A stretch of 64,000 nt of DNA from Escherichia coli O127:H6 str. E2348/69. Its GTDB lineage: Bacteria > Pseudomonadota > Gammaproteobacteria > Enterobacterales > Enterobacteriaceae. The position numbers are program-made. The first letter of the stretch is position 1. Every line of letters starts with the position of its first letter. This document shows positions 24,001-27,000 of the stretch, piece by piece. The stretch lies in the NCBI RefSeq assembly GCF_000026545.1, contig NC_011601.1; one strand, written 5' to 3'.

Positions 24001-27000
24001 CGGGACTTAATGCCCGACTGAAGACGTTTCAGGCGGTGTTCCGGGTGACGGATGAGGCGACCCGGCGATGGCTGGAAGAGTTTTTATCGTGGCATGGTGG
24101 TTACCGTGCCTTTTTGTGGCGACCGCCGAAACATAACCGGACGGTGAGGGTGGTATGCCGGGAGTGGAGCGTCACAGATAACGCCAGGTACAGTGATTTC
24201 AGTTGTACGATTGAGCAGGTGGTGAACTGATGCAGGATATTCACGAAGAAAGTCTGAACGAGTCGGTTAAATCAGAGCAGTCACCGCGGGTGGTACTCTG
24301 GGAAATCGACCTGATGGTACAGGGCGGTGAGCGGTATTTTTTCTGTAATGAGCTGAATGAAAAAGGGGAGCCGGTCACCTGGCAGGGGCGTAAGTATGAG
24401 GCATACCCGATTGACGGCAGCGGCTTTGAGATGAACGGCCGGGGCAGCAGTGCCCGCCCGTCGCTGACGGTGTCCAATCTGTTTGGCCTTGTCACCGGGA
24501 TGGCGGAGGACCTGCAGAGTCTGGTGGGGGCCACGGTGGTCCGCCGCCGGGTGTATGCCCGTTTTCTGGATGCGGTGAATTTCGTTGCGGGCAATCCGGA
24601 GGCGGACCCGGAGCAGGAGCTGAGTGACCGCTGGGTGGTGGAGCAGATGTCGCAGCTGACAGCCATGACGGCCTCGTTTGTGCTGGCCACACCGACCGAG
24701 ACGGACGGGGCGCTGTTTCCCGGTCGCATCATGCTGGCGAACACCTGTATGTGGGATTACCGGGGAGATGAATGCGGGTATAACGGTCCTGCGGTGGCGG
24801 ATGAGTTCGACAACCCCACCACGGATATCCGTAAGGACAGATGCAGCAAGTGCATGCGCGGGTGTGAACTGCGCAGGAATGTCGGCAATTTTGGCGGTTT
24901 CCTTTCCATTAACAAACTTTCGCAGTAAATCCAATGACACAGACAGAATCAGCGATTCTGGCGCATGCCTGGCGGTGTGTGCCTGCGGAGTCGTGCGGCT
25001 TCGTGGTGAGAACGCAGGAGGGGGAGCGGTATATCCCTTGTGTGAATATCTCTGCAGAGCCGGAGGCGTATTTTCGTATTGCACCGGAAGACTGGCTGCG
25101 GGCAGAGATGCAGGGGGAGATTGTGGCACTGGTCCACAGTCATCCCGGTGGTCTGCCCTGGCTGAGCGAGGCCGACCGGCGGCTGCAGATAAAAAGTGCA
25201 CTGTCCTGGTGGCTGGTCTGCCGGGGGGAAATTCATAAATTCCGCTGTGTGCCACATCTGACAGGACGGCGCTTTGAGCACGGGGTGACGGACTGTTACA
25301 CGCTGTTCCGGGATGCCTACCATCTGGCGGGAATTGATATGCCGGATTTTGAGCGTGAGGATGACTGGTGGCGCAACGGTCAGAACCTGTACCTGGACAA
25401 TATGGAGGCGACTGGTTTTTACAGGATTTCCCTGCCTTCCGCACAGCCTGGCGATATCCTGCTGTGCTGCTTTGGCGCATCGGTGGCCAATCATGCCGCC
25501 ATATACTGCGGCAACGGTGAACTGCTTCACCATATTCCTGAACAACTGAGTAAACGGGAGAGGTATTCCGAAAAATGGCAACGACGAACGCATTCTGTCT
25601 GGCGTCACCGCCACTGGCACACATCTGCCTTCACGGGGATTTACAACGATTTGGCCGCCGCCTCAGCCTGTATGTGAACACGGCAGCGGAAGCCATCCGT
25701 GCCCTGTCGATGCAGATGCCGGGATTCCGCCTTCAGATGAACGAAGGCTGGTACCAGATACGTATTGCCGGTGAAGACACGGCACCGGAGGTGGTGTACG
25801 CCCGCCTTCACGAACATCTGGGTGAGGGAACGGTCATCCACATTGTGCCGCGACTGGCCGGGGCCGGAAAGGGTGGACTGCAGATTGTGTTGGGGGCGGC
25901 AGCCATCGTGGGCTCTTTCTTCACTGCCGGGGCATCAATGGCGTTATGGGGTTCAGCCCTGGCAGCCGGTGGTTTTTCTGCCACCACGATGCTGTTTTCA
26001 CTTGGAGCCAGCATGATTCTGGGCGGTGTGGCCCAGATGCTGGCCCCGAAGGCAAAAACACCGGATTACCGCGCAACGGATAACGGCAGACAGAACACGT
26101 ACTTTTCCTCGCTGGATAACATGATTGCCCAGGGGAACCCGATGCCGGTGCCTTACGGGGAAATGCTGGTTGGCTCCCGCCGTATATCCCAGGACATCAG
26201 CACCCGTGATGAAGGCGGGGGCGGAAAGGTCGTGGTTATCGGGCGACAGGGATAAAACATAAAAAAATCCCGCAGTGATCGCGGAGCTGCGGGGACAGAC
26301 AAATGAAGATCAATGTGAAGGAGTTGTTTTTGTTACTCGGGCAAAAAAACACTAACGCAGCGAAATTATAAGCGCCACAGTCAGTGTGTGAAAATGTGAA
26401 GATATTCAGAAATTTTATTCCGTCATGACGCAGGCACCCGGTGAGGTGCCTGTTGTTTTTGTGAGTGAACAATTATCACGGTAAGAGGTGATGTAATGGG
26501 CAAAGGTGGCGGCAAGGCGCACACACCGCGTGAGGCGAAAGACAATCTCAAATCCACGCAGATGATGAGCGTGATTGATGCGATTGGTGAGGGACCGATA
26601 GAAGGCCCGGTGAAAGGCCTGCAGAGTATTCTGGTGAACAAAACCCCGCTGACGGACACGGACGGTAATCCCGTGATACACGGTGTGACGGCGGTCTGGC
26701 GCGCCGGGGAGCAGGAGCAGACACCACCGGAAGGCTTTGAGTCCTCCGGAGCTGAAACCGGACTGGGCGTGGAAGTGACGAAGGCAAAACCGGTGACGCG
26801 CACCATTACGTCCGCGAACATTGACCGCCTGCGGGTTACCTTCGGGGTGCTGTCACTGGTGCAGACCACGTCAAAGGGCGACCGTAATCCTTCCTCTGTC
26901 CGGATTCTGATTCAGTTACAGCGTAATGGCCGCTGGGTGACGGAAAAGGACGTCACCATTAACGGCAAGACCACCTCACAGTTCCTGGCCTCGGTGATTC

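Follow-up and report, generated by a model that had tools for sequence, protein, structure and literature searches.

The closest described relatives of the element analysed here are EcOnc22, EcOnc23 and EcOnc24 (EcOnc22/23/24) of Escherichia coli O157:H7 Sakai, three homologous Hfq cross-linking and analysis of cDNA (CRAC) peaks in the prophages Sp15, Sp14 and Sp11, all of them antisense to the tail genes (Tree et al., 2014, Table S2, PMC4104026). They were described as an independent transcript of uninduced lysogens that is cross-linked to Hfq and depends on it for stability, the northern band of approximately 85 nt being destabilised in an hfq deletion (Tree et al., 2014, PMC4104026). RNase E cross-linking, ligation and sequencing of hybrids (CLASH) yielded chimeras which hold GCCUGAAAAAUAACUCCAUAACGUUAAUCUUCA, that is, the antisense strand, ligated to the yjbJ mRNA (Waters et al., 2017, Table EV7, PMC5286369). 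Here we examine the spacer between the tail genes I and J of a lambdoid prophage of E. coli O127:H6 str. E2348/69, located in a 64,000-nucleotide stretch of NC_011601.1 (hereafter the window). We conclude, with a probability of about 0.78, that the spacer carries a self-contained small RNA (sRNA) gene, reversed between I and J, which is a divergent allele of EcOnc22/23/24. The element adds a new allele to a prophage sRNA family that is already known and has been detected experimentally; it is not a new kind of element.

Several other phage RNAs invite comparison. AgvB and AsxR, described as prophage anti-sRNAs (Tree et al., 2014, PMC4104026), are like the window RNA in kind, being prophage-encoded, Hfq-associated, expressed in lysogens and members of a family with a conserved 3′ part and a variable pairing part. 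However, they are 51–60 nt long, share a conserved 3′ region of ~42 nt and occupy a moron site 3′ of PR′ instead of the tail operon. An identity with AgvB, guessed from the CA-rich tract, was rejected on account of this position, this length and the lack of sequence similarity, the local alignments of AgvB and AsxR to the window RNA lying within the shuffle range (60/500 and 21/500 shuffles scored as high). HnrS (EcOnc10/11/12), a multicopy prophage sRNA repressing hha (bioRxiv 10.1101/2025.11.27.690950), is similarly multicopy and of Hfq type, and lambdoid prophages of pathogenic E. coli carry it in their late region, but it is a 66-nt RNA of Sp9, Sp10 and Sp12 that does not lie at the I–J junction, and identity with EcOnc10-12 was rejected because of the different locus. 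A role as a GcvB sponge was also rejected, since the duplex of −28.0 kcal/mol did not differ from that of shuffled sequences (−29.1 ± 3.8 kcal/mol; the GcvB sequence used was checked against primers only). The OOP RNA of lambda resembles the window RNA in that it is short, has a promoter and an intrinsic terminator of its own and is directed against an overlapped phage operon. Its target region is the end of cII, among the early genes, and it acts in cis through RNase III, whereas cis action of the window RNA is a proposal.

Results

A probable sRNA gene antisense to the tail operon

The spacer occupies exactly 240 bp (26256-26495) between I, a tail assembly gene (25575-26255, plus strand; PF06805, Lambda_tail_I in Pfam), and J, the host-specificity gene (26496-29969, plus strand; PF24801/PF13550, GpJ domains). 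The original prediction, made from the sequence of the window, had pointed to this segment and to two hairpins within it, and all three proved to be present where it placed them: I ends at 26255, J starts at 26496, the 7-bp-stem hairpin CCCGCAG...CTGCGGG (hairpin 1) lies at 26269-26275 / 26287-26293 and a terminator-like hairpin with a T-run (hairpin 2) precedes the J ribosome-binding site. Its premise of I and J as usual neighbours is broadly sound: the two genes are 60 bp apart in lambda, HK629 and PhiR29_2, and no gap (0 bp) separates them in Yersinia phage P400. Compared with the first three phages, the window therefore carries ~180 bp of extra DNA. In the 1 kb around the spacer, scans detected 4 terminator sites (1.0 ± 1.2 expected) and 2 promoter-like sites (0.7 ± 0.8 expected).

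The consensus scan detected a near-consensus sigma-70 promoter on the minus strand, running from 26392 to 26365 and matching 11 of 12 positions (TTCACA-16 nt-TATAAT; −35 hexamer at 26387-26392, −10 hexamer at 26365-26370). The predicted transcription start is G26358. Downstream of this on the same strand lies hairpin 1, in which CCCGCAG (26269-26275) and CTGCGGG (26287-26293) enclose an 11-nt loop; folded as minus-strand RNA it reaches −12.6 kcal/mol (z = −2.0; 7/200 shuffles as good). Because an A and seven U residues trail its stem on the minus strand (stem 26293-26287 / 26275-26269, A26268, U7 26267-26261), hairpin 1 was assigned as a minus-strand Rho-independent terminator (26261-26293), the end of which is 6 nt from the stop codon of I. 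Promoter and terminator on the minus strand thus delimit a predicted RNA of ~98 nt (GCGUUAGUGUUUUUUUGCCCGAGUAACAAAAACAACUCCUUCACAUUGAUCUUCAUUUGUCUGUCCCCGCAGCUCCGCGAUCACUGCGGGAUUUUUUU, from 26358 to 26261), homologous to EcOnc22/23/24 and antisense to the tail operon. A small RNA had been anticipated in the original prediction, and one is very probably encoded, but on the strand opposite to the one assumed there, as the minus-strand promoter, the minus-strand terminator and the data on the Sakai homologue indicate.

The predicted RNA has the traits of Hfq-type sRNAs as judged by sequence, namely a 7-bp GC-rich stem followed by A and U7, and a weakly structured body with a U7 tract and AACAAAAACAAC. 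Its central region (26295-26334, minus strand; sRNA nt ~25-64) is the presumed pairing (seed) region and comprises the A-rich tract AACAAAAACAAC, an anti-Shine-Dalgarno-like CUCCUU and an invariant AUCUU, with variable tracts between them. Rfam searches gave no relevant family match at E values up to 1 in 25000-28000 of the window, and the spacer had no match at gathering score. Complementary k-mers elsewhere in the window did not exceed 11 nt, the only one worth mentioning being a repeat within the spacer itself: the 11-mer GTTGTTTTTGT occurs at 26324-26334, opposite the A-rich tract of the sRNA, and again at 26452-26462, in the U-tail of hairpin 2. This repeat could give the sRNA a further pairing site, directly ahead of the J ribosome-binding site, although the match may be a low-complexity coincidence.

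Homology to EcOnc22/23/24

The window spacer is ~80% identical to the 240-bp I–J spacers of the Sakai prophages Sp15, Sp14 and Sp11, and applying the same promoter/terminator geometry to these predicted a 91-nt Sakai RNA, to which the window sRNA is 74% identical over 100 aligned columns. The published Sakai coordinates refer to an older genome version and had to be shifted by +142 to match NC_002695.2. The shift was first found at stx2 and was checked by mapping three independent northern probes of Tree et al. (2014); for the EcOnc coordinates of Tree et al. (2014) and Waters et al. (2017) the same offset of +142 bp holds at 1.27, 2.17, 2.68 and 2.9 Mb. After this correction, the Hfq peak corresponds to nt 21-81 of the 91-nt RNA. 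Reading the EcOnc22 coordinates directly on NC_002695.2 would place the EcOnc22-24 peak on the hairpin next to J, an assignment that was rejected once the shift had been verified. The EcOnc22/23/24 northern probe is a tail-sense sequence lying inside the Sakai spacer at 2902862-2902896 (NC_002695.2), and the CLASH chimeras in Sakai use the stretch homologous to the central region of the window sRNA. On RNase E, the homologue thus comes close to a host mRNA at least from time to time. While the strand of the Sakai RNA is fixed by the probe and the CLASH reads, the antisense orientation in the window rests on sequence signals.

The two RNAs share the I–J position, the antisense orientation, the terminator, the invariant AUCUU core and a flanking conserved block, and differ in three respects. 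The window RNA is longer (98 nt predicted, in contrast to 91 nt predicted and ~85 nt observed in Sakai), its promoter is much stronger (TTCACA/TATAAT versus TTCCGG/AATAAT), and its central pairing region has a 6-nt insertion giving AACAAAAACAAC, and carries CUUCACAUUG in place of CAUAACGUUA of Sakai. Since the Sakai hexamers fall below the threshold of the scan, promoter strength does not define the EcOnc22/23/24 family.

Conservation and variation of the cassette

The spacer matched 147 phage records, mostly Stx1a-, Stx2a- and Stx2c-converting phages, and 1824 of the 5426 complete E. coli genomes (median 2, maximum 11 places per genome); the matches in E. coli almost never overlap an annotated feature. 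The spacer of E. coli 14EC001 is 100% identical to that of the window. In the phage collection, J is at least 90% identical to that of the window in 148 records and the spacer is matched in 147, these being separate tallies. The three lambda-type phages examined (lambda, HK629 and PhiR29_2) are without the cassette. Approximately 200 loci were gathered from viral contigs with the N-terminus of J and a conserved 19-mer as queries, and they yielded 54 unique spacers and 36 unique sRNA variants. The position of the cassette is fixed, a J start following in 189 of the 190 copies retrieved.

All 36 sRNA variants have nATAAT or TATCAT as the −10 box and keep the −35 position, occupied by TTCACA, TTTACA, TTCTGT or TTCCGG, at a spacing of 16-17 nt. 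Within the RNA, the 5′ end GCGUUA, the U-run followed by the A-rich tract, the CUCC(U/A)U tract, the AUCUU core and the terminator stem are retained. The stem was invariant in 20 aligned variants save for one substitution and one deletion, and its loop was variable. The tracts between the retained elements have accumulated substitutions and indels that are not multiples of three. The best-conserved block of the whole spacer lies directly upstream of the −35 box (AATGTGAAGATATTCAGAAATTTTAT, 26393-26419; 27 nt, AATGTGAAGATATTCAGAAnTTTTAT). It holds the CRP-like sequence TGTGA-N6-TCAGA at 26395-26410, centred at 26402.5, which is about −44.5 from the predicted start. Taken alone this match is at chance level (2 found in 64 kb against 2.2 expected), and about −44.5 is not a canonical CRP position; we regard the match as a lead.

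The spacer can be divided into the sRNA cassette (about 26256-26409) and a lambda-like junction module (about 26410-26495). The J-proximal module exists in two forms, a short one with hairpin 2, found in the window, Sakai and others, and a ~180-bp one in most relatives, which has a different, strong plus-strand terminator. In the long form (L008 1679-2020 and other long-spacer loci) this is a 12-bp-stem terminator, AACCCCGGTATC...GATACCGGGGTT followed by UCUCUUU, accompanied by further hairpins, and the module might encode another RNA. In the commonest long-spacer variants one frame is open for 113 codons across the whole spacer; a protein-coding reading of this 113-aa frame was rejected because indels break it in several variants. 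In one viral contig (L088), which looks like a deletion or rearrangement variant, unrelated DNA directly follows the conserved block and the first part of the long-form module, and a J start could not be recognised within 300 nt.

Hairpin 2 and alternative readings of the spacer

Hairpin 2 (26430-26463, plus strand; CAGGCACC / GGTGCCTG, then UUGUUUUUGUG) is situated 33 nt upstream of the J start, in front of the J ribosome-binding site AAGAGGUGA and ATG start codon (26483-26498, plus strand). Its 5′ arm, (G)CAGGCACC, spans 26430-26438 (CAGGCACC 26431-26438), and is followed by the loop CGGTGA, the 3′ arm GGTGCCTG (26445-26452) and TTGTTTTTGTG. It folds well (−19.7 kcal/mol, z = −3.5; 1/200 shuffles as good), and across the variants the stem is kept while the loop varies. 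The 60-bp I–J gap of lambda (L207 1446-1505; lambda 15445-15504) has the same layout, with AAAUGUUUUAU, a hairpin and then UUUUGU; the lambda hairpin, ACCGCC-UGCG-GGCGGU on the plus strand followed by UUUUGUCAUUU, reaches −21 kcal/mol (z = −2.8). We know of no function described for it. Because the short gap of lambda shares this arrangement, hairpin 2 does not seem to be part of the insertion, which is the antisense cassette; it looks rather like an ancestral element of the I–J junction outside the inserted DNA.

Hairpin 2 may serve to terminate plus-strand transcripts ahead of J or to stabilise them, and among the alternatives to an antisense sRNA a plus-strand role, in which hairpin 2 and its U-run terminate or attenuate the expression of J or end a plus-strand small RNA, survives best, as a possibility that we consider clearly less probable than the antisense sRNA. 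The quality of the hairpin as a plus-strand terminator, the same hairpin and U-run arrangement in lambda, and the presence of a strong plus-strand terminator in the alternative J-proximal module of most relatives all speak for it. One pair of the stem, moreover, occurs as C-G, U.G or U-A, of which the U.G state pairs in plus-strand RNA only. However, this covariation comes from a single pair and 31/500 shuffles score as high, the consensus scan found no plus-strand sigma-70 promoter in the spacer, and hairpin 1 has no plus-strand U-run. The effect of hairpin 2 on J is uncertain because the late transcription of lambdoid phages is Q-antiterminated and reads through intrinsic terminators. A plus-strand role is compatible with the antisense sRNA, and both can hold.

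It is rather doubtful that the main role of the RNA is in cis, that is, that it pairs with the late I–J transcript, much as OOP RNA does with the cII mRNA of lambda, and triggers its cleavage, tuning the output of J or I in lytic growth. Perfect complementarity to the I–J junction of the late transcript is given by construction, and the cassette sits always at one position, with the J start following in all but one of the copies. On the other hand, the Hfq binding of the Sakai homologue and its CLASH chimeras with a host mRNA favour action in trans, and lambda-type phages manage without the cassette. The freedom of the central region to vary between alleles is neutral in this respect, as a purely cis function neither requires nor forbids it.

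The spacer also contains a small plus-strand open reading frame (ORF) antisense to the sRNA (MKINVKELFLLLGQKNTNAAKL, 26303-26371, 22 aa), which in the window is cut short by a premature TAA. The spacer might accordingly be read as a decayed or functional gene of a small protein (MKINV..., 22-41 aa) with the antisense RNA possibly as its type I-like regulator. A Shine-Dalgarno-like GGGAGAG and an ATG precede the 39-aa ORF of Sakai and the 41-aa ORFs of a few relatives, the intact ORF ends just before hairpin 2, and one phage record has a hypothetical protein annotated there. Nevertheless, the ORF is not conserved: 28 of the 54 unique spacers have ATG at the start, 19 have ACG and 7 lack the start codon, and stops and frameshifts in the A-run lead to lengths of 6 to 41 aa. 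No conserved ORF of at least 25 aa was found in the 240-bp spacer, the RefSeq annotation places no gene inside the spacer in the E. coli genome rows examined, and the peptide, as deduced from the sequence, is not hydrophobic, unlike type I toxins. Degenerate coding sequence, which the original prediction had named as an observation that would speak against an RNA, is thus partly present, since the ORF is intact in a minority and broken, startless or frameshifted in most spacers, but the RNA signals are kept in all. Because the ORF decays while these signals persist in every variant, both a protein-coding reading, whose start is lost or frame broken in most of the spacers, and a type I toxin-antitoxin system, for which a conserved small toxin ORF opposite the antisense RNA is missing, are considered unlikely, with some chance left for a minority of alleles.

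Other features of the window

The I–J junction belongs to the tail module of a lambdoid prophage, with the tail gene K at 24934-25677, and lom and then a tail-fibre gene downstream of J. A 425-aa ORF after lom (30788-32065, plus strand) has long collagen-like Gly-X-Y repeats, as in some lambdoid side tail fibres. Two tRNA genes are found early in the window (2730-2802 and 2896-2969, plus strand). Rfam matched STnc100 at 4620-4796 (plus strand, 75.5 bits), an RNA which in Stx phages has been described to overlap EcOnc27, downstream of stx2 (PMC12711010). Further Rfam matches on the right side, STnc490 (41275-41398, minus strand), the trp operon leader (49552-49645, minus strand) and STnc180 (62079-62281, plus strand), make it likely that the window here consists of host chromosome near trp and not of prophage.

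Discussion

We propose that host RNA polymerase would start at the sigma-70 promoter (−35 at 26392-26387, −10 at 26370-26365) and transcribe leftward from about 26358, and that transcription would stop at hairpin 1 and its U7, with the end at 26261, just past the stop codon of I. The product would be the RNA of ~98 nt, weakly structured in its middle and ending in a GC stem and U7 of the Hfq type. In the lysogen, this RNA may base-pair with host mRNAs via its central region with the assistance of Hfq, and since the central region differs between alleles, different prophages would address different targets. During lytic growth it could also act on the I–J junction of the late tail transcript, to which it is fully complementary.

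Several observations weigh against this interpretation. The whole RNA does not fold better than shuffled sequences (z = −0.75), and the consensus fold of the 20 variants recovers the terminator only, without covariation; compensatory changes are absent from the terminator stem because the stem hardly varies. A minority of relatives have the plus-strand ORF intact (MKINV..., 39 aa in Sakai and 41 aa in a few). The evidence for expression comes from the Sakai homologue, the window RNA and its start being read from the sequence (the start from the −10 box only), and the promoter hexamers of that homologue are too weak to pass the scan. Target support for EcOnc22-24 amounts to 1-2 CLASH reads, to yjbJ.

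A more speculative extension, to which we give little weight, is that the I–J cassette may be a portable sRNA scaffold, in which the promoter, the upstream control block, the AUCUU core and the terminator are fixed and the pairing tracts are swapped between prophages, and the RNA of which may also cut the late I–J transcript in cis. If this were true, the tail operons of a strain, with as many as 11 copies, would supply it with an assortment of regulators directed at different host mRNAs.

Roughly one in three complete E. coli genomes has the element, and many of them have more than one copy. As neither genome annotation nor Rfam includes it, a reader may easily take it for a junk spacer or for plus-strand hairpins; the hairpin directly upstream of J is a separate feature, which lambda has as well. 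With its strand, ends and modular structure laid out, the cassette makes a clear experimental target of an abundant prophage sRNA family of Shiga-toxin phages and other lambdoid prophages.

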